Below the pieces are notes generated by a model. The model was not told the origin of the DNA. It worked only from the letters and a program-made list of their open reading frames with translations, and made no database searches. From a virus (taxonomy: Duplodnaviria > Heunggongvirae > Uroviricota > Caudoviricetes): a DNA stretch of 64,000 bases. The stretch lies in IMG/VR virus record IMGVR_UViG_3300027007_000013; one strand, 5' to 3'. Made by a program: the position numbers and the translations under genes. Below are positions 17,521 to 61,576 of this stretch, piece after piece (the stretch's first letter is position 1; each line of letters opens with the position of its first letter).

Positions 17521-17532
17521 AGGACGAGGACG

Positions 17533-21146: not shown

Positions 21147-21179
21147 CGGGGCCGCCGCGGCCCCCTCGCCGACGCGTGT

Positions 21180-23084: not shown

Positions 23085-23086
23085 AG

Positions 23087-24335: not shown

Positions 24336-24674
24336 ATGGAACCGAAAAGTTCCCACCGAGCGGAGTACAGTGAGCCGCCCATCGAGCTGGCGAATGCCGT
24401 GCGACGCGGCGAGCACTACCTGCTGGGCGACGTTGGAGAGTTCGTGGTCGACGAGATCGCTGTTGGGTACCCAGTCGAGGAGCGAGACGGCGTGGTCGCC
24501 CCGAACCGCGAGGCGTTCGTCACGCGTATCGAGTTTGTGGCGCCGGGCGAGTGTATCGTGATGGGTCTTGCCGAGCTCGAGGACCGCATCGATCGAACCG
24601 ATGTGTTGCCCCTGACCGTGCGCGAACGCGATGAGGAGCTGCACGCGGAGTGGGAGAGCCACGGGCTGCTGTAG
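24336..24674 (+). CDS. cassette protein, MEPKSSH start
   Basis: 112 aa. Confidence 0.55.
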   Translation: MEPKSSHRAEYSEPPIELANAVRRGEHYLLGDVGEFVVDEIAVGYPVEERDGVVAPNREAFVTRIEFVAPGECIVMGLAELEDRIDRTDVLPLTVRERDEELHAEWESHGLL

Positions 24675-24778
24675 TCGAGGCGCACCGCTGCGGTCCGCTT
24701 TTGCGCCGTGCCCCGCCGCTCGTCGCTGCTATTACCGGTACGCTGACACTTATACTTGCACGAGTGGTAGGTAGAAGT

Positions 24779-24970
24779 ATGGTCAGAAACGACCACCCGA
24801 ACGGAGAGCTGAGCGAGTACCAGAAGGCGAACGAGCTGAGCGACGACGAGTTGCGACAGCGCGTGATCGAGCTGCGGAGCGAGCCCGCGCCGCTGGTGGG
24901 AGTGGACAGCGAGTTGGAAGCCGCCGAGGAGGTCGCGCGAGACCGCGGGCTCGGGCTGGGGATGAGCTGA
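24779..24970 (+). CDS. cassette protein, MVRNDHP start
   Basis: 64 aa; the ATG lies in the hairpin, slightly upstream of the ORF-track start. Confidence 0.45.
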   Translation: MVRNDHPNGELSEYQKANELSDDELRQRVIELRSEPAPLVGVDSELEAAEEVARDRGLGLGMS

Positions 24971-25117
24971 TGCTGGGCCACAGCGGGCCGTTCTGTCCGG
25001 ACTGCGGTGCAGAGGGACTGAGCGATGAGTGGGTCGAGGGCGGGCGACGGATGGTGGCGCGACAGTGCCCAGAGCCGAGATGTAGCTCGTACTGGGAGTA
25101 CGAGGTGGGCTGCTGAT
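24969..25117 (+). CDS. small zinc-ribbon protein
   Basis: CPDCG...CPEPRC. Confidence 0.35.
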
Positions 25118-25346
25118 GCAGCGACGGATCGACGCGACCGTGGTGATCGGGAGCGACCGAAAGACGGTGTCGGTGTGGGTCGACGAAGACGCGTCCGATG
25201 CGACCCGCGAGGCCGCGGTCGAGGAGATTGTCGGCGACGTCCGGTCGTGGGAGAGTGAGCCGGTCGAGCTCGAGGGATGGGGCGAGACGGGCTGGGTCCA
25301 GGGCGATGGCCGGGACGCGATGCCCCGCCGCGAGCCCGGCTGGTAG
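25116..25346 (+). CDS. hypothetical protein
   Basis: 76 aa. Confidence 0.45.
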   Translation: MQRRIDATVVIGSDRKTVSVWVDEDASDATREAAVEEIVGDVRSWESEPVELEGWGETGWVQGDGRDAMPRREPGW

Positions 25347-25718
25347 CCCCGCCTCGCGATTGTGGCCAGTGTCGGTTTTGCGCCGTGCCCCGCCGACCCC
25401 TGCTTCCGGTCCAACGACGCTGTCCAGCGGATTGAGCCGACTGTGCGCCCGCATCTGACTGTCTCCGGAGGGTCCAAGGGCGTCTCACGTCGGCGTGTTT
25501 CTGACGCTGTGACTCCTACCCTGTAGGGCCTGCTCACGGCGTTTTGACGCCTGTGCGGACACTGTCTCCCGGCGTTCTGTGAGCGTCTCAGGCTGTCGCT
25601 TGCCGTGATGTCGTACGCATGTCATGACCCCTGTTTCCACTCCGCGCCACGTCGCGTCAAACCAGCAGTATCAGCCGCCAAACATATCTATATACTTGTA
25701 CCCTGAGAAGCATAAGAT

Positions 25719-25961
25719 ATGGGAAAGAAAAGTCCCACCCGAGCAGAACTGGCACAGAAACGCCGCGGCATCGTCAGCGCGCTCCCGTTCACGTGCCCGA
25801 CCGAGCGAGGCGACCAGATCGTGGTGCACGTGCAAGACCGCAAGCTGGAGAAGTTCGAGCGCGTCGCGAAGCAGCTCGAGCTCGAAATCGTCGACCGCGA
25901 AGACGGCGGGAGTTCGCAGCAGGGCCGGCGCCTGCGCATGACGCTGGAGACGGCCTCGTGA
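25719..25961 (+). CDS. cassette protein, MGKKSPT start
   Basis: 80 aa. Confidence 0.5.
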   Translation: MGKKSPTRAELAQKRRGIVSALPFTCPTERGDQIVVHVQDRKLEKFERVAKQLELEIVDREDGGSSQQGRRLRMTLETAS

Positions 25962-26111
25962 GCCGCGTCGTCCGGGTCCCGCGTCTCGGCGACCGCCGTA
26001 ACCCGTGCACCGTCATGCACGAGACGCACACGGGTCGCCTGAAAGTGCGCGACCGCTACGGCTACGCCCTGCGGGTCGACCCCGAGGAGGTCGTCGAGTA
26101 GCGCAACCGCC

Positions 26112-26633
26112 ATGTATCGCGACTACGAGATTCGATTCGAGCCGATGGACTGGCCGACGCCCGTGTACGTCAGCGAGGACGAACCCAGCCCCGACGCGGT
26201 CGACCCGATCGAGAACTGGAACGTGAAGCCGGTCGGTGGGCTGTGGACAGCACCGCTGCTCGATGACAGCGACGGCCTCGCGACCGCCTGGACAGAGTGG
26301 ATGAACGCCGAGCAGTACGTCCCGTATGGCGAGAACGCTCGCCTGTACGCCCTCGAACCGCGTGACGACGTCGACCTGTTCGTGGTCGACAGCCTCGATG
26401 CCGCGAAGGAGCTGTACGCGTTCGGCGACAGCGGACCGGCCGAGGTGCTCTCGAGCGCGGTCGACTACGAGGCGATCGTCGACGAGTACGACGGCGTCCG
26501 CCTGACGCATGAGGGCCAGATCGACACGCGCCTGTCGTGGGAGGCGAATCTGAACGGCTGGGATTGTGCGTCGACGGTGTGGTTCGACTGGTGCTTCGAG
26601 TCGGTCGAAGACCTGGGCCCGCTGGAGTTGTAG
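26112..26633 (+). CDS. hypothetical acidic protein
   Basis: 173 aa. Confidence 0.55.
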   Translation: MYRDYEIRFEPMDWPTPVYVSEDEPSPDAVDPIENWNVKPVGGLWTAPLLDDSDGLATAWTEWMNAEQYVPYGENARLYALEPRDDVDLFVVDSLDAAKELYAFGDSGPAEVLSSAVDYEAIVDEYDGVRLTHEGQIDTRLSWEANLNGWDCASTVWFDWCFESVEDLGPLEL

Positions 26634-26793
26634 CCGGGCCCGCTTTTGCGCCGTGCCCCGCCGTCAGCCGACAGCAAACGGGCCTGTTCTGTGGACCGTT
26701 CCGTCCTGTTTTCGCGGATTCGGGCGTCTCAGGCCGTCTACGCGCGGAATGGTGTGGGAAAACTATATACCTGTAAGTGTCCAAGTATAAGAT

Positions 26794-26991
26794 ATGGGAC
26801 AAAAAATCCCAACCCGACGGAGAGCGACGCCGGCGAACCTCGAGCAGAGACTCGCCGAGATCGAGCGAGAGCTGCGGGCGATGAGCCGGGGCGACGTCGA
26901 CGCAGGGACGTGCCGCTGGCTGCTGGAGGAGAAAGCCGAGCTGCGAGCCGAGCGCAACCGCCTGTTCGCGGCGACGGGGCGGTGGTCGTGA
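26794..26991 (+). CDS. cassette protein, MGQKIPT start
   Basis: 65 aa. Confidence 0.5.
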   Translation: MGQKIPTRRRATPANLEQRLAEIERELRAMSRGDVDAGTCRWLLEEKAELRAERNRLFAATGRWS

Positions 26992-27129
26992 TGAGCGACG
27001 ACGAGTTCCCGGGACCCGCGCCGATGGGCGCACGACCGCCGGACGTCGTCGAGCGGGCGAAGGAGATCGCGTACGGCGAGGTGTCGGCGACGTCCGAAGA
27101 AGTCGCCTGGGCGCTGGAGGTGATCGCGG

Positions 27130-27369
27130 ATGAGCGATGAGTTGCTGGGCGTGATCGAGGTCGAGAGCAGCAAGCCGTACGTGAAAGACGTGTACGACGT
27201 GGTCCGCGTCGATGGGCCCGATCTCGAGACGGTCTGCGTCGAAGCTGGCGAGCGCCACGAGCTGGGCGACCGCGTCCGCTGGCCGAACGAGCTCGTGACG
27301 GTGATGTCCCGGGCGACGCTGTACGACCCCGACGGCAACGAGATCGAGATGGCTGAGCTCGGCCGATAG
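27130..27369 (+). CDS. hypothetical protein
   Basis: 79 aa. Confidence 0.45.
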   Translation: MSDELLGVIEVESSKPYVKDVYDVVRVDGPDLETVCVEAGERHELGDRVRWPNELVTVMSRATLYDPDGNEIEMAELGR

Positions 27370-27645
27370 GGCCCCGGCTCCCGCCTCGGCCTACGCGCGC
27401 CAAGGCGCCGCAACCCGGCAACGCGTGTGGGTACGTACCGACGTGTGTGTATGTACAGACGCCGACCCCGAACCCCGATTCGCCCGACCGGCTGCACTAC
27501 CACCAGCAGCGACCGGCTCAGCCGACAAAAAACGGGCCCACATCACGACGGTTTTCACGCGCGGAATCCAAAACGAACGCCTCAGGGCTCCTACGCGCGG
27601 AATGTGACCAGAAACTATATACCTGTCAAAGTACAAGTATGTAAT

Positions 27646-27882
27646 ATGGAATCAAAAATTCCATCCCGACGGAGCAGCGAAGCGTGCGAGAACGGTGTCG
27701 AGAACGCGATCAGTGAGCGAGAACGTCGCCTCGTGCGGGACGTGACGGCCATCGTCAACGAGCTCGAGACGATCTCGCAGCACGACGAGATGCTGAGCGG
27801 GCGAATGACGAAGCAGTGGGCCGAGGGGCTGTGCGACGCAGTCGACGAGTTCGCCGAGTCGGACCCGCACGCGCAGGAGTAG
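27646..27882 (+). CDS. cassette protein, MESKIPS start (last cassette of the array)
   Basis: 78 aa. Confidence 0.5.
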   Translation: MESKIPSRRSSEACENGVENAISERERRLVRDVTAIVNELETISQHDEMLSGRMTKQWAEGLCDAVDEFAESDPHAQE

Positions 27883-28473
27883 GGCGGGCGAGCGGGCTTT
27901 TTTGTGGGCGCTGATGTCGCGTGCCGATTTTCCGCCGTGCCCCGCGCCGCGTCGTCCAGCCGAACGGTGGGTGTCGTTCCCGTGGGCGCTCGAGCTGACG
28001 CCGTGTCGTACGGTGACGCTCTGACCCGTGCAGTCGGTCGCGTCGTACGGCGGGCCCCCTGAACGGCGCCCCACTAAAGTCAAATTTTAGATATATCCTC
28101 GTTTCGACCTACTTTTCAGGGCACACCGCTGTGAGAGGTGCGTATCGACAATAATCTATCATAACCCCTCCCGAATAGCTCCCCATAACCCTGTCTTCAA
28201 CGATGTCGCCCGTCCACGTCCCCATTTGTCGGGCACACCGATTTTCAGGCACTCGCCTCTGGTGGTAGTGAGTTTCGGTGACATGAACCATATCGATTGA
28301 CCTGTATGTACCCATATTTCGAATCATAACGAAAATTATATATCCGCTTACTGACTATCTTAGAATGTCCCTCCCGTGGAACGGAGTGACGCATTGCATG
28401 AAGCGAACGCACGACCGGCCTGGAGACCCGGTCACGTACCCGAGTAGCACCGCACTCACTACCACCAGGGACG

Positions 28474-35532: not shown

Positions 35533-37176
35533 ATGCCCACAGCGAACCTCCTGAACACGAAGGCCGGCAAGTTCGGCCAGGTCCCCGGCGCCGCCTCTCG
35601 CGCTCGCATGTCCGAGCTCGTCGAGGGGAAAGGTGCGATCGACCTTCGCGACTACCAGTCCCACTTCGAGCAAGCGTTCGACGATCCCGTCGAAGCACAG
35701 ATCAAGTTCGAGAACTGGTGTTGCCGAGTCAAAGACACGCTGATCTCGTCGTCGGGTATCGATCTCCGACCATACCAGAAGGAGTTCTCCGATCGCATCA
35801 TCAAGTCCGTCGTTCGGAATGATGGACAGACGTTCTTCGCCGAATGGGCTCGTCAGAGTGGAAAAACGGAGACACTGGCCTCGACGGCCTACGCGGTGTC
35901 TGTCCTGTTTGCCCCGATCCGCATCGGTATTTTCGGTCCGAAGCAGCGACAGGCGCAGATCATGTGGGACCGCGTGAAAGAGCGGTACAACCAGGAGGTT
36001 CTCGACGGACTTGGGCTCGAGATCGAGAAGTATGGGGGAAACACGTTCAAGCTCTCCTCTGGGTCCGTGGTTCAGGCGATCACGGCTGGCTCGGGGAACA
36101 TTGAGGGGGAGACATTCGACCTGATCCTCATCGACGAGACGCAGAAGATCAGCCGCCGGATGCTCCTTGCGGAGATCTGGCCGATGGGGGCGGAGACCAA
36201 CGCGACGAAGTGTTGTATCGGAACGCCGCACTTCCAGGACTGCTGGTTCCGAGAGCAGCTGGAGCGGCTGAAGGGCACGCCGTTCTGTATGATATACGAC
36301 TGGCGGACGCCGGCGAAATACTCGAAGAACTACCGGAAATCGATCGCCCGCCAGCTGGAGCAGATGAGTCCGGAGTCCGAGGAGTTCCGCACACAGTACG
36401 AGCTCGAGTGGATTCTGGAGTCGGGGATGTTCATCACGATAGAGGACTGGCGCCGGATGAACCCGCCGCCGCTCATGACCCCGGTCGTGACGAAAGAGGA
36501 GCTGTACGACAGCGAGATCAACTCGAAGTGGCAAGTGAGAGCGGGCGTCGACCTCGCGAAAGAACACGACTCGACTGTTCTGACGGTCACTGGCAAATAC
36601 TTCGGGTCGTGGGAGCCATACTGGGATGGCTTCTCGGAGGAGACGATCGTACTCCTCGACGTGGTCGAATTGGAGGGCCTCGAGTACCCGGACCAGATAG
36701 ACATCATTCAGGAGGAACTGGACCGATGGCACGCCGACGTGCTTGGAGTGGACTCGACTGGTGTCGGCGACCCGGTGACAGATATCCTGAAGCGAGAGCT
36801 GAACCAGCACGTCGAGGGCATCAAGTTCACGTCATCGAGCAAGCACGACCTGTACAAACACGTCGAGCGGAAGGTGAAGGTCGAGGAGGAATGGGACTAC
36901 TGCAACTTCGTGATCCCAAAGAAGGTCCGCTCCTACCCACACCTGGAGGTGTCGATGCGGAAGATGGAAGAACAGTGGTTGGAGCTGACGAAAGAGTACA
37001 AAGGGTCACGCATGAGTGTTGAGGGACCGGATAGCGGGCACGACGACTACCCGGACAGTGCAGCCCTCTCCATGTGGGTGCAGGACGCCGACTACAACAT
37101 CGACGAGAAGCACATGACCTCGCCAACCCCAGTCCTGGGGACGATGAACGGCATCGGGGCGAAGATCGGGTACTGA
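35533..37176 (+). CDS. terminase large subunit
   Basis: Walker A FAEWARQSGKT, Walker B DLILIDETQ, C-terminal RNaseH-like nuclease region; 547 aa. Confidence 0.8.
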   Translation: MPTANLLNTKAGKFGQVPGAASRARMSELVEGKGAIDLRDYQSHFEQAFDDPVEAQIKFENWCCRVKDTLISSSGIDLRPYQKEFSDRIIKSVVRNDGQTFFAEWARQSGKTETLASTAYAVSVLFAPIRIGIFGPKQRQAQIMWDRVKERYNQEVLDGLGLEIEKYGGNTFKLSSGSVVQAITAGSGNIEGETFDLILIDETQKISRRMLLAEIWPMGAETNATKCCIGTPHFQDCWFREQLERLKGTPFCMIYDWRTPAKYSKNYRKSIARQLEQMSPESEEFRTQYELEWILESGMFITIEDWRRMNPPPLMTPVVTKEELYDSEINSKWQVRAGVDLAKEHDSTVLTVTGKYFGSWEPYWDGFSEETIVLLDVVELEGLEYPDQIDIIQEELDRWHADVLGVDSTGVGDPVTDILKRELNQHVEGIKFTSSSKHDLYKHVERKVKVEEEWDYCNFVIPKKVRSYPHLEVSMRKMEEQWLELTKEYKGSRMSVEGPDSGHDDYPDSAALSMWVQDADYNIDEKHMTSPTPVLGTMNGIGAKIGY

Positions 37177-40974: not shown

Positions 40975-41994
40975 ATGCAAGCTGTTGTAGATGCAACTGG
41001 AAACGCACCCAGCCTCGCACCCCTGAACGCGCGCCGCTCTCGATTCAGCCTCCCAGTCGCTGGAGAGACGATCATCGAGCGCGTCGTAAGCGGGCTCGTC
41101 GATATCGGTGTTGAACGGATCGCGATTGTCACGGACGAAGACTCCATCCGGACGATCTTCGGCGCTGAGCGCGGTGTCGATCGGCTCGGCATGGAGGACG
41201 TCGAACTGTGTTTCATCCCGCACTACTACGGCGACACAGCGTCGAAGACACGCGGTCTGGCGGAAGACACTGGCTTCCTGTGGGTCCGTGGCGATACACT
41301 CTACGACTGGGAGACGATTGCCCAACTCGCCGAGCACGATGCGGCACTCGGATACGTCCCTCACCCGCACGAGGCGGCCCACGGGAAGCTCCAGATCAAC
41401 GGTGACGACCTGCGCGCATCGCCCGGCGAATACACACACTCTGGGGCACACCTGGCCTACGCGTACAAGTTCCCACCCCGAGCTCACGAGTGGGACTACG
41501 GAATCGATCCGATGACAGAGGAACTCGCCACGGAGCCCGGCACAGAGGAGGTCTCGATTCGCTGGACGCCGATCACGAACCCGAGAGACTATCTGCAAGC
41601 GAACCTCGAGCGGGCCGGTGCTGGTGGTAGTGAGATGTCGGTCGATGGAACACTGGTCGGACCCTGCGTGATCGGAGAGGACGTGACCGTCGGACCGGGT
41701 GCTGTGGTCGAATCGTCTGTGCTCCTGGACGGTGCGACTATCGGTGCCGGATCGTACGTTGGATACTCAGTGGTCGACGAGGGCGTCACTATCGAACAGA
41801 ACGTGACGACGAATACGCGAGCAGCCAGTGGGGAAACGGTCGTCGCAGAGTTCGGCGGCGAACGGGTAGACACTGGGATGACGGAGTTCGGGACAGTCTT
41901 CGGCCCAGGGGTGACGGTTCAGGCCGGGGCGACGGTCATGCGCGGGACCACGATCGACACGGGACTGACTGTTGATCCTGGGGAAGTTCGCTGA
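40975..41994 (+). CDS. sugar-phosphate nucleotidyltransferase fused to a left-handed beta-helix (GlmU-like)
   Basis: N-terminal nucleotidyltransferase fold; C-terminal hexapeptide repeats VGPCVIGEDVTVGPGAVVESSVLLDGATIGAGSYVGYSVV. Confidence 0.6.
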   Translation: MQAVVDATGNAPSLAPLNARRSRFSLPVAGETIIERVVSGLVDIGVERIAIVTDEDSIRTIFGAERGVDRLGMEDVELCFIPHYYGDTASKTRGLAEDTGFLWVRGDTLYDWETIAQLAEHDAALGYVPHPHEAAHGKLQINGDDLRASPGEYTHSGAHLAYAYKFPPRAHEWDYGIDPMTEELATEPGTEEVSIRWTPITNPRDYLQANLERAGAGGSEMSVDGTLVGPCVIGEDVTVGPGAVVESSVLLDGATIGAGSYVGYSVVDEGVTIEQNVTTNTRAASGETVVAEFGGERVDTGMTEFGTVFGPGVTVQAGATVMRGTTIDTGLTVDPGEVR

Positions 41995-42902: not shown

Positions 42903-43784
42903 ATGAACGAACGTGCGCAGTCAGCGGCTGGGCCGATTGCGGTCGTGGTCCTGGTCGGTGCCGTTATCCTTGTCGGAGTTGGTCTCGCGTCGATGCAGAC
43001 AGTCGACGAGGGACACGTCAAAGTGGTCACCTACAAAGGCAACGCCGAAGGGACGTTCTACCCCGGCAACTGGTATTTCATCAACCCGATCACGCAGGGG
43101 ACCGTGTCGGTCGACGTTCGGCCACAGGTGATGCAGATGGTTGCTGCACAGGGAGAAGGCGAGCGTTCCGAGTTCGACGACTCGATCAAAGTAGTGACTA
43201 ACGACAACATGCGAGTGCCAGTTGACGTTGCGATCACCTACCAGGTCGACGACCCGGTCACCTTCTATGAGGAGTGGAAGACTCACGACCAGGCCCGACA
43301 GCGGGCGATCCGACCTGGGTCCCGGGCCGCCATCTACACCGTTGGTGGTGGGATGTCCGGTACCGAGATCACCAACGACGAGGCACGAGAGCGGATGCGC
43401 CTCGCTGTTGCTGAAGAACTGGAAGACCGGTTCGACGGGACGGGGCTCGCTCTGATCGCTGTCGACATCCGTGGCGTGTACCCACCCGACTCGTTCCTGG
43501 ATGCGGCCGAGAACGCCCAGGCCGAGCGTCAGGAGATCATCGCTGAACAGCACCGACAGGAAGTTGCCAGAGAGCACGCAGAAACGCTCCGTATCGAAGC
43601 CGAAGGTGAGCGAGACGCCCGCCTGATCCGCGCCGAAGCGTACGAGAACGACGCTGTCCTCGAAGCGATGTACATCGACGAGCTCAGCGAGTCCAACGTG
43701 ATCTACGTACCGGTCGGTAACGATGGCGTGCCACTGTTCATGGACGTCAGCGACGACGAGAACAGTACAAGCGGGAGTCCGTAA
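42903..43784 (+). CDS. SPFH/band-7 (stomatin/prohibitin-like) membrane protein
   Basis: N-terminal TM helix then a band-7-like region (VDEGHVKVV...ITYQVDDPVTFYE) and a coiled-coil tail. Confidence 0.55.
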   Translation: MNERAQSAAGPIAVVVLVGAVILVGVGLASMQTVDEGHVKVVTYKGNAEGTFYPGNWYFINPITQGTVSVDVRPQVMQMVAAQGEGERSEFDDSIKVVTNDNMRVPVDVAITYQVDDPVTFYEEWKTHDQARQRAIRPGSRAAIYTVGGGMSGTEITNDEARERMRLAVAEELEDRFDGTGLALIAVDIRGVYPPDSFLDAAENAQAERQEIIAEQHRQEVAREHAETLRIEAEGERDARLIRAEAYENDAVLEAMYIDELSESNVIYVPVGNDGVPLFMDVSDDENSTSGSP

Positions 43785-43787
43785 GTC

Positions 43788-43970
43788 ATGGCTCTCGCGG
43801 TCGTGGGCCTCCTGCTCGTGTGGGTGTCTCTGTGCATCGTTACGTTCGTCGCCTATCGGATGTACATGCGCCACCGCGACCGGAAGCACGAGGAGCGTAT
43901 CAAACAGCTGGAGACGCAGCAAACGCTGTTCGAGAACGACGAGCTGTTCGACGACGAGGACCTGTAAGAT
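43788..43970 (+). CDS. small membrane protein
   Basis: MALAVVGLLLVWVSLCIVTFVAY...; followed by another 31-aa TM peptide at 43969..44064. Confidence 0.35.
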
Positions 43971-44071
43971 GATCCCGCCCGAATCGTACTGGATGGCGGC
44001 GGGAGCGGTACTGGGCGTCGCGGGGACGCTCCTGGGACTGTACCTCGACGGGTACATCCCGTAGCGGCGAC

Positions 44072-44128: not shown

Positions 44129-44941
44129 ATGCAAATCAAACAAATCGCAGGCACGCCGCACCCCGAGCGACTGGTGAGTCTGTGTGCACGAAACGACTAT
44201 CGAGCTGATGGCGTCATCGACCACTCATTCGCCGAGATCATGGCGGGTGTGAAAGTGGACGACGACGTCGTCGACGATCTCCGTGAGGAGTGGTTTGACG
44301 ACGACGATGTTGCACGGGACGACCCGTGGGATGCGATGCCAGCCGAGTTCAGAACAGAAGCAGAACAACGATCGCTCCTCAAGCATACCATGAACGAGGG
44401 CCACTGGGGCGTGTTCGAGCACCCACAGGCGACGCTCGCGCTCGAGGGTATCACCCGGACATCGATGGCGCAGATCACGCGCCACCGACACTTCACGTTC
44501 GACATCATGTCCCTCCGATACGTCACACTCGACTTCGACTCGGTCGAGGAGATGAAGGAGCGATTCGCCGAGCCTGATGAGATCACGGCCGAGGAGGTCG
44601 TGAGTCGGAACGGCGTCGAGACCATCGACATGGACCCCGACGAGCGCGAGGAGATCTGGTGGGAGACGATCGCCCACACCGCCCACACCTACAACACACT
44701 CGTGGACGCTGGCGTCCCTCAGGAAGAAGCGCGCAAAGTCCTCGGTATGGGAACGAAGGTCAACATCATGATGTCTGGGAACGCCCGGGCCTGGATGCAC
44801 CTTCTGAACATCAGAGGGAAAGCGAACGTCCAGGGAGAGGCCCGAAACATCGCTGACGGCGTGATGGGCGAGATGAAGGAGTGGATGCCGTACACGTTCG
44901 AGCGGTACGACGACATGCTCCCACTGAGACTGAACCCATGA
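44129..44941 (+). CDS. thyX: flavin-dependent thymidylate synthase ThyX
   Basis: ThyX signature RHRHFTFDIMSLRY (RHRX7S). Confidence 0.8.
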   Translation: MQIKQIAGTPHPERLVSLCARNDYRADGVIDHSFAEIMAGVKVDDDVVDDLREEWFDDDDVARDDPWDAMPAEFRTEAEQRSLLKHTMNEGHWGVFEHPQATLALEGITRTSMAQITRHRHFTFDIMSLRYVTLDFDSVEEMKERFAEPDEITAEEVVSRNGVETIDMDPDEREEIWWETIAHTAHTYNTLVDAGVPQEEARKVLGMGTKVNIMMSGNARAWMHLLNIRGKANVQGEARNIADGVMGEMKEWMPYTFERYDDMLPLRLNP

Positions 44942-48326: not shown

Positions 48327-48578
48327 ATGACCGCAGATACCCAGTCTACCAGCACCGGGTCTACCGAGAACCGGGAGCTGATGAGAGTGGACGTGCTCGC
48401 TGAGGACGGGCACCTCCACGAGTTTCGCAATGTCGTCGATGCGCACGAGCGTGGCGACGGCGTCCAAGTAACGTATCTCGACGACGGTGAGGAAATCGTC
48501 GAAACCGTGGGCGAGATGGGTGGGCGCATCGTGTGCGCACTCATACCGGCCAGGTACGGGGGACAGAGCGATGATTGA
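48327..48578 (+). CDS. hypothetical protein
   Basis: 83 aa. Confidence 0.4.
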   Translation: MTADTQSTSTGSTENRELMRVDVLAEDGHLHEFRNVVDAHERGDGVQVTYLDDGEEIVETVGEMGGRIVCALIPARYGGQSDD

Positions 48579-48828
48579 CCCGGTCCACCTGGTGGTCCTC
48601 GACGGTGAGTGTGACGTGTTCGAGGACGGCTACGGGATTCAGCCGGCGCACCGCGTCGCCGTGACCGACTATTACGGTGACTTCGAGTTCCCTGGCTCGG
48701 AGGTGTATTCAACGGCCATCAAAGCGCACGGCGCCAACGGGATCGTCTACATCCGAGAGTCTGATATCAACTACATCGTCGACCTGTCTGACGACGAGTT
48801 CCGACCCGTCGGCGAGGAGAGTGCGTGA
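48571..48828 (+). CDS. hypothetical protein
   Basis: 85 aa. Confidence 0.4.
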   Translation: MIDPVHLVVLDGECDVFEDGYGIQPAHRVAVTDYYGDFEFPGSEVYSTAIKAHGANGIVYIRESDINYIVDLSDDEFRPVGEESA

Positions 48829-49349
48829 CCATGACTGATGACTTTGTCCCTGTCCGCCGCGAGGTCGCCGAGCTTGCCGCCCAGGAGCTGTTCGAACAGG
48901 CGGAGTACACAGACGTCCCAGAACAATCGGACCGCCGTGAGCGGCTGCTGGAGGCCGCAGAATCGATCACAGTATCAGTCAATGGCGACCACGATGGGAA
49001 GCTCAGTCACCCGGACAGAGAGACGTGCGTCCGAGAGGAGGTGTTTCTCGAGGAAGACCCAACTGACGAGTACCTGGACGAGGCCGGGTGGAACGTCGTC
49101 TACAACTGTCCGATGTGTGGCCGGCGTTACGAATACTTCTACGGGTTCGAGGGCATCTACGACACGGAGACGAAGCGGTACATTACGTCAGAGTCGTTCG
49201 ACCCCTCGTGGGAGTGGGACGAAGAAGACGGGTACCACGATGGACAGTGTTTCTCAATCCCCGCCACCGACGACGCCCGGTACGAACGGGTGTACATCAT
49301 GGATGGGCTGTACGACCCACTCGATCACGAACAGATCTGGAGTGCCTGA
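48825..49349 (+). CDS. hypothetical protein with CPMCG
   Basis: 174 aa. Confidence 0.45.
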   Translation: MTMTDDFVPVRREVAELAAQELFEQAEYTDVPEQSDRRERLLEAAESITVSVNGDHDGKLSHPDRETCVREEVFLEEDPTDEYLDEAGWNVVYNCPMCGRRYEYFYGFEGIYDTETKRYITSESFDPSWEWDEEDGYHDGQCFSIPATDDARYERVYIMDGLYDPLDHEQIWSA

Positions 49350-50035
49350 TGGCGGTTACGACACAGGTCCCGACAACACTCGCCGACTGGTACCACCAGC
49401 ACGACTACGGCGCCGTGCAGGACCGGCTCGCCACTGTCCGAGACGTCACGCTCGACGGTGAGATCGAGCAGGCGGCCGAGAACATCCGGCGAGCTTACCA
49501 CTTCGCCGTCCTCTCGATTCGGACGGTCAAAGACATCCACGAGCATGCGTTCGACCTATGGATGGACGGCACTGCGCTTGAGGACGCAGTACGCATCGCC
49601 GGCGTCAACTTTTACCGGAACAAAGTCGGTTGGATTCGACAGACTGAGGAGTCGGTTCACTGGAAGGGGCTTGTTCGGAGTGTTCGAGAACACGTCGCCC
49701 GTGACGAGCTCGGCTCACTCATGGACCTGAACGAACGACTGTCCGGTGTCCACTACGCGAAGTGGGGCTTCACACTCGCACTGTCCGGTGTGTGGGAAGT
49801 GATCTGTATCGATAGCAACGTCAAGAATCACTACGGGATCGACGGGCGACTCGATCTTCGGTCGAACGATGGGATCGACACCTACCGTGAGATGATCGAC
49901 CGTGTGGTGCGCGACGTGCCCGGCGACGTCCCGCCGTTTGTCGCGCAGTGGGTGGTGTACGATTACCAGCGCGGTGAACACGCCACGCACGACCCGTACT
50001 TCGAATCGGCCTACCCGTTCGCGGAGGGTGTCTGA
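49349..50035 (+). CDS. hypothetical protein, possibly DNA-modification accessory
   Basis: 228 aa directly upstream of the two TGT-like genes. Confidence 0.4.
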   Translation: MAVTTQVPTTLADWYHQHDYGAVQDRLATVRDVTLDGEIEQAAENIRRAYHFAVLSIRTVKDIHEHAFDLWMDGTALEDAVRIAGVNFYRNKVGWIRQTEESVHWKGLVRSVREHVARDELGSLMDLNERLSGVHYAKWGFTLALSGVWEVICIDSNVKNHYGIDGRLDLRSNDGIDTYREMIDRVVRDVPGDVPPFVAQWVVYDYQRGEHATHDPYFESAYPFAEGV

Positions 50036-51036
50036 TGGACATCGACGAGATCTACGAGCAAGAGATTGACGCTCGCGAAGACATCGTCGAGGCGTGTCCC
50101 ATCGACATCTACGTCGCGTCGATCAACCCCTACTGGGCATACCCGAACAAGCTGATGTCGTACTACGAGACGCGGCCCGGCGTTCGTGATTCGTGTCGCC
50201 AGGTGATCGTCGACTCTGGGAAGACGCGTATCGGTAACATGAGCGAGATCATCCAGGCGGCTATCGACATGGATGCTGACCAGGTGATACCGCCGGACCC
50301 GACGCCATACACAGACGGGTACGACGAGCTCACGCCCCACGGCCACGCCGAGGAACAGGCACAGCACTACTGGGAGTGGTATCGAGAAGACGTCGACGGG
50401 ACGATTTTGCTCCCGATCCACCCGCCGTATCAGCGGTTTATTGAGGAGCTCGGTCGGTGGGACCCTGGGCACATACTCGGGTACGAGGACGACCCGTACT
50501 TCGACTACCCGAGTACGCCTGAAGCTGAAGAACGCTACCTCGCCGGTGTCGAGCACTACTCGCTCACGTACGACCTGATCGGTGCCGCCGATGGCGTTGC
50601 GGTCGGGAGCCTCCTGGGCCTCGACGTCTTCGAGCAGATCACGGCACTCAAGCAAGTACGAGAGGCGGTCGGGCCGTACAAACACGTCCACGCACTTTCG
50701 CCGACCCCTCGGCCCGAGATGCTGCTGTTTCTCCGGCGAAACCCTGGGATTATCGACTCACTCGACCTGTCGACGCCCGAGACGGCGCCGGCTGGGAACA
50801 AGCTTCCCGACCTGCGGTTCTATCCGCAGATGAAGTACCTGTTCCCACCAGCCCATGCGAACATCAGCCCCGTCAGAGGTGCAGCGTCGACGATGATCGC
50901 GCTCATGCTCAACTTCTGGCTGAGTGAGTGGGTCAAAGAGGAGGAGTTGATGGAGATGCTCGAGGAGCACTACGACTGGGTCGAGCGTGAGCAGACCGCC
51001 CAGACCGGCCTGGAGGCGTTCGGACATGGCGACTAA
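50035..51036 (+). CDS. TGT-fold protein (DpdA-like paralogue)
   Basis: QVIVDSGK and GIIDSLD segments echo the two Asp-containing TGT motifs; weaker match than the next gene. Confidence 0.4.
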   Translation: MDIDEIYEQEIDAREDIVEACPIDIYVASINPYWAYPNKLMSYYETRPGVRDSCRQVIVDSGKTRIGNMSEIIQAAIDMDADQVIPPDPTPYTDGYDELTPHGHAEEQAQHYWEWYREDVDGTILLPIHPPYQRFIEELGRWDPGHILGYEDDPYFDYPSTPEAEERYLAGVEHYSLTYDLIGAADGVAVGSLLGLDVFEQITALKQVREAVGPYKHVHALSPTPRPEMLLFLRRNPGIIDSLDLSTPETAPAGNKLPDLRFYPQMKYLFPPAHANISPVRGAASTMIALMLNFWLSEWVKEEELMEMLEEHYDWVEREQTAQTGLEAFGHGD

Positions 51037-52255
51037 CCTCGTCGACGACGGTCATCGTCCCACGCCGGAACGAGACACGTTCCGTCACGTCTGGGCGAGA
51101 GAACGCGGGCCCTGGGTCGTCCTTGAGCGCATCAAAGGGACGCGAATGGAGAGCGGTGAGATCGTCGCTGAGTGCGATGACTACCTGGAGGCACTCGCGT
51201 TCGCTGTCGATTCCGAGACAGAGGACTGGGTTATCACGGAGATCGCTGGTCAGTGCTGCAACTGTGGACAGCTGGTTGTCGTCGACGAGCTCGCTGAGGA
51301 GCCGACGTGTCCACACTGCAACGACGTCCTCTGGCTGGCCGCCGAGCAGCGACGGTTGGCCGAGTTTGCCCGCGACCGGCTGGCGTTCGATATGTACTGG
51401 GGTGTTGCCTCTGGCGCACAGCGGAAAGCGATCCGTGTCCTTGCGCACGGATTCGACCATCGCGAGCCAGACAATCTCAACATCATGCTGAACTACGCGA
51501 CGCAGAATAATCAGCTCCTGACCGAGAAGGGACTGGAGCTCATGACGAACGTCGAGACCCTGTTTATCGACTCTGGCGGCTACTCGTTCTTCGAGCGAGA
51601 GGGTGGATACGACACTTCAGACTGCGAGTACCTGCGATACATCGCCCGCGTGCAACCTGATTACTTCGCACTCAGGGATTACCCGTGTGAGCCTGACATC
51701 CTGGATGCACGCGACACGACCGTCCAATACCACCAGCAACGGACGACAGAGAAAGCCCAGATCCTGCTCGATATGCTTGATGACTTTGCGATCACGGCCA
51801 CACCAGTTGCGGTCGTGCAGGGGTGGTCGCCCGATGATTATCGGTCACACCTCCGGCAACTCTATCGCGCTGGTGTCCTCGACGAGGTGGAGCACATCGG
51901 CATTGGGACCCTCTGTGGTCGCGAAGACGTTGCCCAGATCGCGACCATCGTCGAGGCCGTCAGAAAGAGTGTTGGACCGGACTTCAAAATACACGGGTTC
52001 GGTGTCAAGCGAGAGGCGTTAGAACGCCCGGACGTCGTCGAGTCACTCGACTCGGCCGACACACTCGCGTACAGCATGAAGCCGATGTACGATTCAATCG
52101 CTACTGGTGGTATGGTCGCGAACACGTGGAAACACGAAGCGCGAGGGTTCCTGGATTACTATGCCACGATCCACGAGTCGCTCAGACGAATCGAGCACGG
52201 GGAAGCCGACGAAGATATAGTCGCCCAACAGACGCTTGCATCATATGGTGACTGA
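51026..52255 (+). CDS. tRNA-guanine-transglycosylase-family protein, DpdA-like DNA-guanine transglycosylase
   Basis: LFIDSGGYSF matches the TGT substrate-Asp motif (bacterial FTDSGGFQ); VVESLDSAD matches the region of the second Asp; N-terminal CxxC...CxxC. Confidence 0.6.
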   Translation: MATNLVDDGHRPTPERDTFRHVWARERGPWVVLERIKGTRMESGEIVAECDDYLEALAFAVDSETEDWVITEIAGQCCNCGQLVVVDELAEEPTCPHCNDVLWLAAEQRRLAEFARDRLAFDMYWGVASGAQRKAIRVLAHGFDHREPDNLNIMLNYATQNNQLLTEKGLELMTNVETLFIDSGGYSFFEREGGYDTSDCEYLRYIARVQPDYFALRDYPCEPDILDARDTTVQYHQQRTTEKAQILLDMLDDFAITATPVAVVQGWSPDDYRSHLRQLYRAGVLDEVEHIGIGTLCGREDVAQIATIVEAVRKSVGPDFKIHGFGVKREALERPDVVESLDSADTLAYSMKPMYDSIATGGMVANTWKHEARGFLDYYATIHESLRRIEHGEADEDIVAQQTLASYGD

Positions 52256-58585: not shown

Positions 58586-61576
58586 ATGAGCCAACCAGAC
58601 AGTAGTGTGCGCCTCCCGAAGAAGCAAACAACGGGAGCCACGCTCGAAGACCGACTGACAGAGAACGCGTACCAGCGGATTATTCCACAGCGATACCTCA
58701 AGAAGGACGAGAACGGTGTGCCAACGGAGGAGCCAGAAGACCTGTTCGAACGCGTGGCGAAGAACATCGCCATCGCTGAGGCGATCCACACGGACGAGAC
58801 GGTGTGGATAGAACCCAGGCACATCAAGCCCGACCACCCGCGACGCGAGGACCTGATCCGCGAGGTATTCGACGACTACGGCATCGCTGATGCCGAGGGC
58901 ATGGAGCCGACCACGGAACTGGACGAGGAGAACGCCAAGTGGGTCTCCTACGATACAATCATCGACGACCTCGACACTACCACCAGAAGCGTCGTCGAGG
59001 ACACGAAAGAGCGGTTCCAGGATCGTATGGAGCGTCTGGATTTCATCCCGAACAGCCCCACCCTCGCCAACGCCGGCGACGAGCTCCAGCAACTCAGCGC
59101 ATGTTTCGTGATGTCCCCGGAAGACGACATCGCTGACATCCACGACACGCTTCGTGATGCTGCGCTGACGTTCCAGTCGGGAGGCGGCGTTGGGTATGCG
59201 TTCAGCTACCTTCGACCCTACGGTGACCGTGTCGGCTCGACTGGTGGTATCGCATCGGGCCCGCTCACGTTCATGCGGACCTACGACCAGATGTGCCGGA
59301 CGATCGCCCAGGGCGGGATGCGCCGCGGCGCGCAGATGGGTGTGATGCGAGTCACGCACCCTGACGTGATCTTCTTCATCCACTCGAAGAACAAGGACGT
59401 CTCACTCGCGCAGGCCCTCCGTCTGAACGACCCGAAGGACTACGTAAACTCGTCGTACGGGGAAGCCCTCGAAGAAGCCCGCGACACACTCGAGCGGTTC
59501 ACTGACGACGAAGGACGTCTCGAACCACACCTCCGAAACGCTGTCGAGGCACAGCTCGCCAACTTCAACATCAGCGTGACGGTCACCGACGACTTCATGC
59601 TGGCCGTGGAGAACGACGAGCTCCACACGTTCATCAACCCGCGCACTGGACAGCCCCACATCGCGACCGAGGAGACCAAAGAGATGTACGAGTGGTTCGA
59701 CCTGGGTCACCACGTCACTGTGGGAGAGCCACTACGTGTCCCGGCTCGCGAGATCTGGGATGACATCATCGAAGGTGCGCACGAGAACGGCGAACCAGGG
59801 GTGCTGTTCATCGACAGTGCGAACGCGGACCACTCGTTCCCGACGGAATCGACGCCGACATGGCGCGACGACGATCAGTTCGAGATGTCGACGACCAACC
59901 CCTGTGGCGAGCAATGGCTCATGGAGAACGAGGCGTGCAATCTGGGCCACATAAACCTCTCGACGCTTGTGGCCGAGGATGCACCCGACTGGCGAACGTA
60001 CCTCGACACATACGGCGCCCCGAGTGGGTACGAACCCGACCGGTCTGAGATGGCATACGTCGTTGGTGATTTCCTCGAGAAAGCCATCGACTGGGAGGAG
60101 CTCGACGCCCGCGTCGACGACGGCGTTCGGTTCCTCGACAACGTCGTCACCATGTCGTCATTCCCCACCCCGGAGATCGAACAGACAGTACGGGATAACA
60201 GGAAGATAGGACTCGGGATCATGGGACTGGCCCAGATGTTCGTGCAGATCGGGACCAAGTACGGGAGCGATGTCTCGAACGAAGTGACCAGACAGGTGAT
60301 GCGCCACATCAACCAGCGGTCGAAAGACGCATCGCTACGTCTGGCTGACCAGCGTGGGTCGTTCGAAAACTGGGAGCACTCGAAGTACGCCGACCCGACC
60401 GCCCACACAGACTGGTTCGAGCGCCAGACTGGAGAGGCGGCCGACGTCTGGGAAGATGGCTACCCGATACGGAACCACAACACGACCACAGTGGCGCCGA
60501 CTGGGACAACTGGAATGATCGGAAACACGAGCGGTGGATGTGAACCGATCTTCGGTGTTGCACACTTCAAAAACGTCTCTCAGGACATCCAGGGAGACGA
60601 GCAGCTCGTTGAGTTCGACGACTATTTCCTCCGTGTCCTGGAGGCTAACGACGTCGACGTCGAAGCGGCGAAGACAGAGTGTCTCGAGCAGATGCAAGCC
60701 AACGAGTTCGAGGGTGTGAAGGGGCTCGAAACGGTCCCGGACGAGATCGGCGAGCTATTCGTCACCACGGACATGCTCAGTGGCCTCGAGCACGCGTCTG
60801 TCCAGTGTGCCGCCCAGGAGGGCGTGGACAGTGCGATCAGCAAGACCGTCAACTTCCCCAACAGCGCGACCAAACAGGACGTGCAGGAAGTGTACGCGTA
60901 CCTGTGGAGCCACGGAGCCAAGGGAGGAACGATCTACCGCGATGGGTCCCGTTCGAAGCAAGTGATCTCAACCAGAGCTGATCACGGAGACGTGGCCGGC
61001 GGAGAGCCCATGTCGCGAGAGGACGCTGAGGCTCGAATCGACGAGCTCGCAGAGGAACACGGTATCCCACTGGCCGCCGCTGAGCAACCCGCTACTGGTG
61101 GTATCGAGCTGGCTGAGCCGGGCAAGGTTCTGTCTGCTCGACGCGAGCGCATCAAGACGGGATACGGGAACATGTACGTCAACATCGGGTTCGACGACGA
61201 GGGTCGCCCCATCGAGACGATCTGCAACATCGGGAAGTCGGGCGGGTTCACCAACTCGATGGTCGAGGCCATCGGCAAACTGTCGTCGCTGGCACTCCAG
61301 GCTGGCGTTCCAGCCGAGGAAGTAGTCGAGAAACTCGACGGCATCTCCTCGCCGGACATCGGGTTCGACGATGGTGAGCAGATAGCCTCACTCCCGGACG
61401 GTATCGCCACCGCACTTCGTCGTGCGGTCGAGGCCGAGAGTGAAGCGACACTCGAGATCAAAGCCCACAACGATCACAACCCGAACGAGGAGTCCTGTCC
61501 GGACTGTGGCGGCGACGTCGTTTACGACGGTGGGTGCCCGAAGTGCGCCCTCGAGTGTGGTTGGTCGAAGTGCTGA
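58586..61576 (+). CDS. nrdJ: ribonucleoside-diphosphate reductase, adenosylcobalamin-dependent (class II)
   Basis: 996 aa; active-site NPCGEQ; C-terminal CPDCGG...CPKCALECGWSKC zinc ribbon. Confidence 0.85.
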   Translation: MSQPDSSVRLPKKQTTGATLEDRLTENAYQRIIPQRYLKKDENGVPTEEPEDLFERVAKNIAIAEAIHTDETVWIEPRHIKPDHPRREDLIREVFDDYGIADAEGMEPTTELDEENAKWVSYDTIIDDLDTTTRSVVEDTKERFQDRMERLDFIPNSPTLANAGDELQQLSACFVMSPEDDIADIHDTLRDAALTFQSGGGVGYAFSYLRPYGDRVGSTGGIASGPLTFMRTYDQMCRTIAQGGMRRGAQMGVMRVTHPDVIFFIHSKNKDVSLAQALRLNDPKDYVNSSYGEALEEARDTLERFTDDEGRLEPHLRNAVEAQLANFNISVTVTDDFMLAVENDELHTFINPRTGQPHIATEETKEMYEWFDLGHHVTVGEPLRVPAREIWDDIIEGAHENGEPGVLFIDSANADHSFPTESTPTWRDDDQFEMSTTNPCGEQWLMENEACNLGHINLSTLVAEDAPDWRTYLDTYGAPSGYEPDRSEMAYVVGDFLEKAIDWEELDARVDDGVRFLDNVVTMSSFPTPEIEQTVRDNRKIGLGIMGLAQMFVQIGTKYGSDVSNEVTRQVMRHINQRSKDASLRLADQRGSFENWEHSKYADPTAHTDWFERQTGEAADVWEDGYPIRNHNTTTVAPTGTTGMIGNTSGGCEPIFGVAHFKNVSQDIQGDEQLVEFDDYFLRVLEANDVDVEAAKTECLEQMQANEFEGVKGLETVPDEIGELFVTTDMLSGLEHASVQCAAQEGVDSAISKTVNFPNSATKQDVQEVYAYLWSHGAKGGTIYRDGSRSKQVISTRADHGDVAGGEPMSREDAEARIDELAEEHGIPLAAAEQPATGGIELAEPGKVLSARRERIKTGYGNMYVNIGFDDEGRPIETICNIGKSGGFTNSMVEAIGKLSSLALQAGVPAEEVVEKLDGISSPDIGFDDGEQIASLPDGIATALRRAVEAESEATLEIKAHNDHNPNEESCPDCGGDVVYDGGCPKCALECGWSKC

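Follow-up and report, generated by a model that had tools for sequence, protein, structure and literature searches.

Modification of DNA with 7-deazaguanines is an established anti-restriction strategy, and DpdA is taken as a signature of 7-deazaguanine DNA (PMC10516641). Phage and virus DpdA proteins of the PF23859 type include those of 9g, CAjan, Rosebush and eHP-23. Viruses with DpdA only form the largest and least understood class; one of them is the halovirus HRTV-29, for which use of host preQ0 was proposed earlier (Liu et al. 2021, PMC8651126). DpdA4 (HVTV-1 gp69, DUF6610; Hutinet et al. 2023) is an archaeal-virus-specific DNA transglycosylase of the TGT superfamily that adjoins a full preQ1 pathway, and HVTV-1 DNA contains dPreQ1 at ~30% of G (PMC10516641). 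In the Salmonella Montevideo Dpd system, DpdA exchanges G for preQ0 with an Asp nucleophile and an Asp general acid/base; Ala in place of either residue abolishes the exchange, three Asp residues are called invariant in TGT and DpdA, and bacterial DpdA requires DpdB, a ParB-like ATPase (PMC10164549).

The window, the whole 64,000-nucleotide stretch analysed here, is part of the presumed ~89-kb genome of a tailed virus of haloarchaea. It carries three adjoining genes that, judging from their sequences, most likely make up a module for DNA base modification; the strategy is known, but this grouping of three genes is unusual. All three lie on the + strand, at 49349-50035 (ORF1, 228 aa), 50035-51036 (ORF2, 333 aa) and 51026-52255 (ORF3, 409 aa), and the positions in the initial annotation hold. 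So does its proposal of two tandem TGT-superfamily genes: ORF3 is a canonical DpdA (PF23859) and ORF2 a divergent homologue of the HRTV-29 gp33 type. ORF1 is an HhH-GPD (Ogg2/EndoIII-like) DNA-glycosylase-fold protein. The stop of ORF1 and the start of ORF2 overlap in TGATG (50033-50037), and ORF2 and ORF3 overlap by 11 nt, with the ATG of ORF3 at 51026 and the TAA of ORF2 at 51034-51036. Translation of the three genes would be coupled.

Profile searches identify ORF3 as a true DpdA. It scores 71.7 bits against Pfam DpdA PF23859 (gathering score 27) and matches PHROG 1279 at 2e-28 and the PADLOC DpdA model at 1.3e-8. Its DpdA domain covers aa 174-352 (51545-52081), and none of the predicted active-site aspartates D182 (51569-51571), D218 (51677-51679) and D345 (52058-52060) varies in an alignment of 24 family sequences. 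ORF3 keeps all family invariants and, like the phage and virus proteins named above, lies above the model cut-off. The peptides LFIDSGGYSF and ESLDSAD, first quoted as TGT motifs, contain D182-S183-G184 and D345, respectively, and are not chance resemblances. Roles for the three aspartates, in turn general acid/base, base recognition and nucleophile, are taken from Asp95, Asp130 and Asp256 of Salmonella DpdA, a correspondence inferred from motif order. By this analogy, ORF3 is predicted to exchange G for a 7-deazaguanine, with the same chemistry expected as in the Salmonella Montevideo system.

ORF3 has 94 homologues, nearly all of ~260-290 aa and without an N-terminal extension, and shares ~40-46% identity with many DpdA proteins of hypersaline metagenomes and haloarchaea. 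It differs from other PF23859 members in an N-terminal extension (aa 1 to ~150, 51026 to ~51475) with a CCNC...CPHC zinc ribbon and a weak zf-C2HC5 match at aa 70-111, a feature common only to ORF3 and a Halorarum plasmid homologue. It also differs in having no preQ0 genes alongside and in a start overlapped by a transglycosylase gene of a different type. Compared with the Dpd system, ORF3 reaches only 36.5 bits against the NCBIfam bacterial DpdA equivalog, below the cut-off of 200, and neither DpdB (ParB-like) nor DpdC or DpdD-K was found in the window by Pfam or by PADLOC on seven window proteins. That no DpdB-like partner was identified in the window counts against the main reading of the locus given below.

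ORF2 is matched by no model in Pfam (E up to 1), PHROG or NCBIfam, and it has no sequence-level match in the PDB. BLASTP aligns it with ORF3 over a single 58-aa match (E 3e-4). Its homology to DpdA and TGT follows from four kinds of comparison: hhalign of ORF2 against the DpdA alignment (92.9%, E 3.8e-7); reciprocal HMM matches, in which the DpdA HMM matches the ORF2-family member P0006 (E 1.2e-7) and the ORF2-family HMM matches a canonical DpdA (E 2.3e-14); weak matches to Pfam TGT (PF01702) in nine of 72 family members, none of which matches PF23859; and Foldseek. The AF2 model used for the last has a pLDDT of 75.7 and a pTM of 0.77, with residues 248-276 poorly predicted, and among the PDB matches listed for it, all 50 are tRNA-guanine transglycosylases (E ~4e-6, TM low at ~0.40). 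Profile-profile comparison and structure prediction, both named at the outset as checks on a TGT fold in ORF2, agree with such a fold, and the low TM of the model against TGT and its poorly predicted stretch count against the main reading.

By sequence and model, ORF2 is a distant DpdA/TGT homologue from a separate, old family for which no model exists. An exhaustive profile search places 182 cluster representatives in this family. Across 72 diverse members, D60, H219 and D244 never vary, and conservation of D88 is 90% or more. The putative catalytic residues D60 (50212-50214), D88 (50296-50298) and D244 (50764-50766) follow the order and spacing of D182, D218 and D345 in DpdA, and the invariants of the two families pair one-to-one (D60/D182, D88/D218, Q129/Q265, G191/G294, H219/H323 and D244/D345). 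The register of the last pair rests on the DSxD motif, as the hhalign alignment stops just short of it. The quoted ORF2 peptides VIVDSGK and IIDSLD are likewise present and hold invariant residues. The initial annotation had described ORF2 as a paralogue with weaker motifs, a description that does not fit a separate, old family keeping all catalytic residues. A degenerate, inactive paralogue is ruled out by the family-wide conservation of D60, D88, H219 and D244.

The sole isolate-virus member found for the ORF2 family is gp33 of Halorubrum virus HRTV-29, annotated as 'DpdA' (genus Dpdavirus), which matches the family profile by hhalign at 100% (E 1e-39). HRTV-29 is likewise DpdA-only and a proposed hijacker of host preQ0 (PMC8651126). 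The two proteins share ~25% identity and differ in length, ORF2 having 333 aa and a lineage-specific insert of ~35 aa (residues ~140-185) against 243 aa in gp33. In HRTV-29, one transglycosylase gene follows a DUF6884 protein; here, two follow an Ogg2-like protein. DpdA4 belongs to the same superfamily as ORF2 and ORF3 and is distinct from both: hhalign gives E 0.026 (probability 1.9%) against ORF2 and E 0.59 against ORF3, phmmer with HVTV-1 gp69 finds no match in the window, and there is none to PF20314. An assignment of ORF2 to DpdA4/DUF6610 is ruled out on these grounds.

Members of the ORF2 family occur in several settings. The ORF1-ORF2-DpdA trio is also found, with 85-95% identity, in the IMG/VR contig IMGVR_UViG_3300027007_000012 (88.7 kb), the single contig returned by an IMG/VR search for wider genomic contexts of the family. 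A Halorarum/Halobaculum halophilum plasmid keeps the ORF2-DpdA pair at 71-77% identity, and one contig with these genes is listed at 320 kb, a length at odds with the ~89-kb replicon presumed here. ORF2-type genes also stand alone, without a canonical DpdA, in other viruses and plasmids, and on haloarchaeal plasmids they lie among Dam and Dcm methyltransferases in DNA-modification islands. No match to sequenced phages was obtained by megablast with the locus or tblastn with ORF2 against 50,697 phage records. The family (~180 clusters) is missed by Pfam, PHROG and NCBIfam, so surveys that use the DpdA signature would undercount such viruses.

The base itself probably comes from the host. The initial annotation saw no Que or FolE gene in the window, and three lines of search agree. 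A Pfam sweep of 79 further window ORFs and 10 large ones found no Que/FolE family; phmmer with HVTV-1 FolE, QueC, QueD, QueE and QueF found nothing at E <0.2 among all six-frame ORFs 50 aa or longer; and precomputed Pfam matches for genes up to ~10 kb past either window end include no Que/FolE family. FolE, QueC, QueD, QueE and QueF are thus missing from the window and ~10 kb of flank per side, ~84 kb of the ~89-kb genome. Over the same ~84 kb, no virus-encoded preQ0/G+ pathway in the style of the Druskaviridae, 9g or CAjan, with FolE, QueD, QueE and QueC and optionally QueF, ArcS or Gat-QueC, accompanies DpdA, and the full preQ1 pathway that adjoins DpdA4 in HVTV-1 is absent here. Because the preQ0-pathway genes are absent, the virus would depend on a 7-deazaguanine base made by the host, as first proposed. 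Archaeosine, named then as one such base, does not fit: archaea produce free preQ0 for arcTGT, and archaeosine is formed on tRNA once preQ0 has been inserted (PMC10516641). The most likely base is therefore preQ0 from the host archaeosine pathway, and the default expectation for the viral DNA is dPreQ0 and not dG+.

Modification of this virus's DNA is predicted from its genes and from analogy with characterized enzymes. In the main reading, to which we give a probability of roughly 0.6, the three-gene module would supply two independent DNA-guanine transglycosylases that exchange G for host preQ0 after replication. If they work like TGT and Salmonella DpdA, ORF2 and ORF3 would each flip a target G from the DNA duplex. 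General acid/base catalysis would fall to the Asp of the DSG motif (D182 in ORF3, D60 in ORF2) and reading of the base edge to the third Asp (D218 in ORF3, D88 in ORF2), and a free 7-deazaguanine base would resolve the intermediate. Use of host preQ0 would leave dPreQ0 in replicated viral DNA and block G-dependent restriction enzymes. The two enzymes may cover different sequence contexts, and possibly different bases, to give a higher density of modification. Independent action is the most economical arrangement, since each family is also found alone and both proteins keep their catalytic residues. With transglycosylases of two subfamilies in one operon, subfamily differences in sequence context or base substrate become testable.

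The role of ORF1 in such a module is less clear. The two-lobe HhH-GPD fold was found in ORF1, which has no sequence-level match in the PDB. K138 (49760-49762) and D155 (49811-49813), both invariant, lie in the motif GVHYAKWGF...CIDSNVK. In the sole alignment with MjOgg, which is weak and not significant (E 0.015), D155 aligns with MjOgg D147 and K138 falls one residue past K129, the residue replaced by Gln in 3knt. Compared with the Ogg2 family (MjOgg, SsOgg and Tm1821) and other HhH-GPD proteins, ORF1 is virus-encoded, adjoins transglycosylase genes, lacks a sequence-level match and has its Lys off by one in that alignment. By default, it is read as a virus-encoded base-excision enzyme of EndoIII/Ogg type, its activity being predicted. 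An ORF1-type gene beside ORF2 is recurrent but not constant, and distant ORF1 homologues are solitary in haloviruses that gave no match to either DpdA-type query. This solitary occurrence makes a tie between ORF1 and base modification uncertain. Three apparent leads in the neighbourhood were followed and dropped: ORF1 has no similarity to HRTV-29 gp32 ('YaaA'/DUF6884); the gene upstream of the ORF2 homologue in locus L027 is not ORF1-like on comparison; and in L010, where the unknown proteins have no Pfam match, the 313-aa protein encoded beside ORF1 shows no similarity that would make it a hidden TGT.

ORF1 may still take part in making a 7-deazaguanine derivative, as was first suggested for the gene adjoining the pair. 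The fold has precedents, as Qng1/DUF2419 and Dag1/Dag2 are HhH-fold N-glycosylases that handle 7-deazaguanines. Qng1 supplies queuine to eukaryotic TGT (PMC9881137), and the anti-phage glycosylases Dag1/Dag2 cut 7-deazaguanine out of phage DNA. We consider it unlikely that ORF1 is integral to modification, in any of three versions. As a Qng1-like salvage N-glycosylase, it would free preQ0 or the archaeosine base from nucleotides of host tRNA turnover and feed the transglycosylases. As a restriction arm, it would attack host or competitor DNA that is unmodified (G-containing) or differently modified, while ORF2 and ORF3 shield the viral DNA. As a partner, it would flip bases or tailor the inserted dPreQ0. 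A narrower and still less likely proposal is that ORF1 is the working partner of the transglycosylases, as Qng1-like salvage enzyme or restriction half and not in repair; the ORF2 family would in that case count as a sixth subfamily of DpdA, having partners of its own (Ogg2-like here, DUF6884 in HRTV-29). If ORF1 acts in salvage, a virus without biosynthetic genes could still hypermodify its DNA; if it is a restriction half, a glycosylase would destroy DNA that lacks 7-deazaguanine protection. Either role would be a new way to run a 7-deazaguanine DNA system, and glycosylase-fold proteins, now known to attack 7-deazaguanine DNA on behalf of the host and to salvage queuine, may also serve the viral side.

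We also judge it improbable that the viral DNA is essentially unmodified, that the enzymes act on another substrate such as host tRNA, or that the inserted base is other than preQ0. DpdA-only phages tested so far have no modification or a trace, Orion having none and 7-11 having 0.02% of G (PMC6884629), a record that also counts against the main reading. The activity of DpdA3 and DpdA4 could not be demonstrated in E. coli, and the promiscuity of DpdA2 enzymes, which accept preQ0, preQ1 and CDG, would allow another base (PMC10516641). However, the Orion case was put down to a host without preQ0 (PMC6884629), whereas archaeal hosts make preQ0 (PMC10516641). A further argument for function is that selection has kept both transglycosylase genes intact and conserved in several related viruses.

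It is very improbable that ORF2 and ORF3 form one heteromeric enzyme like QTRT1/QTRT2, in which one subunit would carry out catalysis and its partner would bind DNA or regulate: every catalytic residue is kept in both, whereas the catalytic Asp is lost in QTRT2; each family occurs alone in many genomes; and the two families are remotely related. These points outweigh the tandem genes with their 11-nt overlap, the conservation of the ORF2-DpdA pair in three related elements and the dimeric working form of TGTs, which in eukaryotes is a heterodimer of paralogues (PMC10164549, PMC9881137).

The dispersed motif ACCACCAG was raised in the initial annotation as a possible sequence context for modification. 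Its over-representation is plain, with 34 copies against 1.76 expected, but its role as a target context gained no support, as nothing found ties ACCACCAG to DpdA. An RNA or DNA hairpin is ruled out by a mean z of -0.1 against shuffles, and the window contains no Rfam family match and no tRNAs. The extended repeat TACCACCAGNAGCG does not occur in 13 related loci (L001-L013), and those of them that are distantly related have almost no copies of the ACCACCAG core.

Two ORFs on the + strand, at 48487-48828 and 48825-49349, precede the module. The second has no match in Pfam or PADLOC. The genes upstream of ORF1 differ in the related loci L002 and L010, where this pair is not kept. In the present virus, the two ORFs share an overlap, and a further overlap of 1 nt joins the second to the start of ORF1, so both may be co-transcribed with ORF1.

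The locus is a chain of three plus-strand genes, ORF1 (49349-50035, 228 aa), ORF2 (50035-51036, 333 aa) and ORF3 (51026-52255, 409 aa), which lie exactly where the initial annotation placed them and contain the peptide motifs it quoted. The stop codon of the preceding ORF (48825-49349) overlaps the ATG of ORF1, ORF1 and ORF2 share a TGATG overlap of TGA and ATG (50033-50037), and the ATG of ORF3 (51026) starts 11 nt ahead of the ORF2 TAA. The earlier identification of tandem TGT-superfamily genes is borne out by profile searches for both genes and, for ORF2, by an AF2 model compared with Foldseek. A DpdA-only halovirus, Halorubrum tailed virus 29 (HRTV-29), is already known. New here are two DpdA subfamilies in tandem, one of them unseen by current profile libraries, and a neighbor with a predicted glycosylase fold. 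The initial observation is thus confirmed, and its interpretation is largely right, with corrections needed.

Profile matches and conserved motifs identify ORF3 as a canonical DpdA. It matches Pfam PF23859 at 71.7 bits (gathering score 27) over residues 174-352, PHROG 1279 at 2e-28, and PADLOC DpdA at 1.3e-8. Its score against the bacterial DpdA equivalog of NCBIfam, 36.5 bits, is far under the cut-off of 200, making ORF3 a viral-type enzyme that lies outside the Dpd restriction-modification system. Nearly all of its 94 homologues are DpdA proteins of 260-290 aa with 35-46% identity, and their sources are haloarchaeal genomes, metagenomes of hypersaline sites, and eHP-23, an environmental halophage. 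A 24-sequence alignment places all DpdA invariants in ORF3 (D182-S183-G184, D218, Q265-G266, G294, H323, G326, and D345). In Salmonella DpdA, Asp95 is the general acid/base, Asp130 the base reader, and Asp256 the nucleophile; the three are called invariant across TGT and DpdA, and alanine at the general acid/base or nucleophile position abolishes exchange (PMC10164549). Judged by motif order, D182, D218, and D345 are their probable counterparts. ORF3 is extended at its N-terminus by ~150 residues, which include a CCNC...CPHC zinc ribbon (weak zf-C2HC5 match); in the same alignment, only the Halorarum homologue shares this feature.

ORF2 is, by profile and model comparisons, a distant DpdA/TGT homologue in a separate family, with no match in Pfam, PHROGs, or NCBIfam. 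BLASTP aligns only 58 of its residues with ORF3 (E 3e-4). When six family members are compared profile to profile with a DpdA alignment, the probability is 92.9% (E 3.8e-7), and the match covers the C-terminal half of the barrel. A DpdA HMM retrieves the ORF2-family database record P0006 (E 1.2e-7), and an HMM of 72 family members retrieves canonical DpdA (E 2.3e-14). The AF2 model (pLDDT 75.7, pTM 0.77) returns TGT structures for 50/50 of the Foldseek PDB matches listed, at E ~4e-6 and a TM of only ~0.40. Weak Pfam TGT matches occur in nine of the 72 members, and PF23859 or DUF6610 matches in none. The family is sizeable and lacks a curated model: an exhaustive profile search retrieved 182 relatives (132 at E <1e-10) from 1.84 billion cluster representatives. 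DpdA4 (HVTV-1 gp69, DUF6610), an archaeal-virus subfamily (PMC10516641), is unrelated at the level of the profile and phmmer comparisons made.

D60, H219, and D244 are invariant across the 72 diverse ORF2-family members, and conservation reaches at least 90% at S61, D88, P127, Q129, G191, and S242. The pairs D60/D182, D88/D218, Q129/Q265, G191/G294, H219/H323, and D244/D345 map ORF2 one-to-one, in order, onto the DpdA invariants, and ORF2 therefore looks catalytically competent. A decayed DpdA copy was considered and is ruled out by the conserved D60, D88, H219, and D244. The only isolate member found is HRTV-29 gp33 (annotated 'DpdA', genus Dpdavirus), which matches the ORF2-family profile with 100% probability (E 1e-39) and the canonical DpdA profile at only E 3.6e-4. 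Upstream of gp33 lies gp32 (L019:5607-6008), annotated 'YaaA', which matches DUF6884 strongly (3e-31). This domain also occurs in one ORF2-family protein, from protein alignment A5, and DUF6884 may be a partner of the ORF2-type transglycosylase family.

[quoted passage not shown] It has no match in the Pfam, PHROG, NCBIfam, or PADLOC libraries and only seven close homologues. Its confident, all-helical AF2 model (pLDDT 86.3, pTM 0.84) best matches the Ogg2-family structures MjOgg (3knt) and SsOgg (3fhg) in Foldseek (TM 0.59-0.69). The family-invariant GVHYAKWGF...CIDSNVK aligns with GIGYKEASHF...IIDRHIL of MjOgg, in an alignment that alone is not significant; there, D155 falls on D147 and K138 one residue past K129, the residue mutated in 3knt. 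The label 'endonuclease III' is given to distant homologues that two isolates, HATV-2 and HGTV-1, encode at 27-28% identity (88% length coverage); in both, the gene stands solitary amid small unknown genes.

The ORF1-ORF2-DpdA trio recurs in an 88.7-kb IMG/VR viral contig at 85-95% protein identity. The Halorarum plasmid has ORF2 and DpdA without ORF1, two loci (L002 and L003) have ORF1 and ORF2 with no DpdA nearby, the ORF2 type is alone in L004-L007 and HRTV-29, and the ORF1 type is alone in L010, L012, HATV-2, and HGTV-1. These varied combinations indicate that the three genes are modular. ORF1 is a recurrent, non-obligatory neighbor of ORF2. That it is a functional partner, with a salvage, weapon, or tailoring role, has precedents in Qng1 with eukaryotic TGT, Dag1/Dag2, and aGPT-Pplases, and is unlikely overall. 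The two loci with ORF1-family genes and no TGT-like gene (L010:1-16681 and L012:1-8766) also encode a ParB_N-like protein, NUDIX, phosphodiesterase, Methyltransf_21, sugar-nucleotide epimerases/dehydrogenase, and several conserved unknown proteins of 300-540 aa, and may represent a different, uncharacterised DNA-modification island.

ORF2-family genes adjoin Dam and Dcm methyltransferases on haloarchaeal plasmids, which fits a DNA-modification role for the family. One lies beside four methyltransferases within 6 kb on a Salinibaculum plasmid (NZ_CP129994; L027:7875-15265), and another beside a DNA adenine/cytosine methyltransferase cluster on a Halosolutus plasmid (L028:6062-8762). Both clusters look like anti-restriction modification islands.

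As first noted, the window contains no recognisable pathway for the base. Across 79 further and 10 large window ORFs, a Pfam sweep detected neither GTP cyclohydrolase I nor PTPS/QueD, radical-SAM QueE, QueC, or QueF, and phmmer queries with HVTV-1 FolE, QueE, QueD, QueC, QueF, and DpdA4 gave nothing below E 0.2 in six-frame ORFs of at least 50 aa from the window and comparison loci. Precomputed Pfam matches for the ~10-kb flank on each side hold no FolE/Que families. The proposed host supply fits these absences; archaeosine as the supplied base does not stand. Archaea make free preQ0, arcTGT puts it into tRNA, and archaeosine is then formed on the tRNA (PMC10516641), so preQ0 is the base on offer. 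HRTV-29 likewise lacks a preQ0/G+ pathway, and hijacking of host preQ0 has been proposed for it by Liu et al. (PMC8651126).

In the favored reading, with a probability of about 60%, ORF2 and ORF3 would act on replicated viral DNA, replacing G with preQ0 from the host through the TGT double-displacement mechanism; they would do so independently and probably in different sequence contexts, and the exchange would shield the DNA from restriction. With 76 of 182 viruses, DpdA-only phages form the largest known class, and host preQ0 or uptake is their suggested source of the base; of the two tested, Orion, whose host lacks preQ0, was for that reason unmodified, and phage 7-11 carried dADG at 0.02% of G (PMC6884629). 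Modification that is absent or only trace in this virus, or a different substrate, is a quite unlikely but precedented outcome. A QTRT1/QTRT2-like heteromer of ORF2 and ORF3 would suit their tandem arrangement and is very unlikely, each transglycosylase type being able to stand alone.

The dispersed repeat that the initial annotation suggested as a modification context is real, with 34 copies of the 8-mer ACCACCAG where 1.76 are expected, distributed over both strands and all 64 kb (for example at 147, 6897, 28461, 35466, 48227, 49392, 51729, 52104, and 63767); this analysis found nothing linking it to the transglycosylases. The 8-mer forms a core within the longer consensus cACT-ACCACCAG-n-AGCG, in which position -1 is T in 32/34 copies and positions +9, +11, and +12 are A, C, and G in 29-30/34. 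Half of the copies are intergenic, compared with ~27% non-coding sequence in a rough gene list; genic copies, of which ORF1 contains one and ORF3 two, lie in varied reading frames. Only contigs of this virus or its nearest relatives are rich in the core; it is less prominent in the 85-95% relative and almost missing from more distant ones, and loci L001-L013 contain no copy of the extended form TACCACCAGNAGCG. The repeat shows no folding or hairpin signal and no Rfam match. Its 3' half, CAGCAG, agrees with CxGCxG, a partial recognition motif described for the Salmonella DpdA; that enzyme belongs to a different subfamily, making the agreement a lead only. The repeat may serve as a binding site for a protein or as a modification site.

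The locus is part of a tailed haloarchaeal virus of ~89 kb, as indicated by flanking tail genes, the 88.7-kb viral relative, and synteny over at least 21 kb with a 149-kb Halorarum (Halobaculum) halophilum plasmid; no close relative occurs among 50,697 deposited phage genomes. Identical contigs extend the window by ~10 kb on each side, with beta-helix genes, giant tail-fibre-like genes, and a UvrD helicase on the left (L022) and tail genes on the right (L018). Window proteins are strongly acidic and mostly plus-strand (GC 0.52-0.66), and Pfam identifies a T4-type large terminase (35533-37176) and MazG, HNH, HTH, and Band_7/SPFH proteins. A nucleotide-metabolism and accessory block surrounds the locus (40975-41994; 42921-44057, minus strand, no Pfam match; 44129-44941; 58586-61576), including an NTP-transferase/hexapeptide protein, ThyX (44129-44941), and a class II-like ribonucleotide reductase with a TSCPD domain (58586-61576), in a gene order common to the window and the Halorarum plasmid. 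The virus also encodes an 1172-aa type IIG restriction-methyltransferase fusion (3309-6827, minus strand) with Eco57I/MmeI-type methyltransferase domains (Pfam; PADLOC REase_MTase_IIG, 2e-36). The ~8000-28000 segment has a GC of 0.62-0.66 (~0.58 elsewhere), GC3 up to 0.95, and many small, densely packed ORFs, and includes a 554-aa HATPase_c_3 protein (13334-14998) resembling the N-terminus of PADLOC TmtA models; it carries the ACCACCAG repeat and is therefore part of the same replicon. Proteins identical to those of the locus (database records P0001, P0007, and P0101) are listed on a contig far longer than the 88.7-kb relative, at 320,643 bp; this contig may be a misassembly, a provirus within a larger replicon, or a larger virus.
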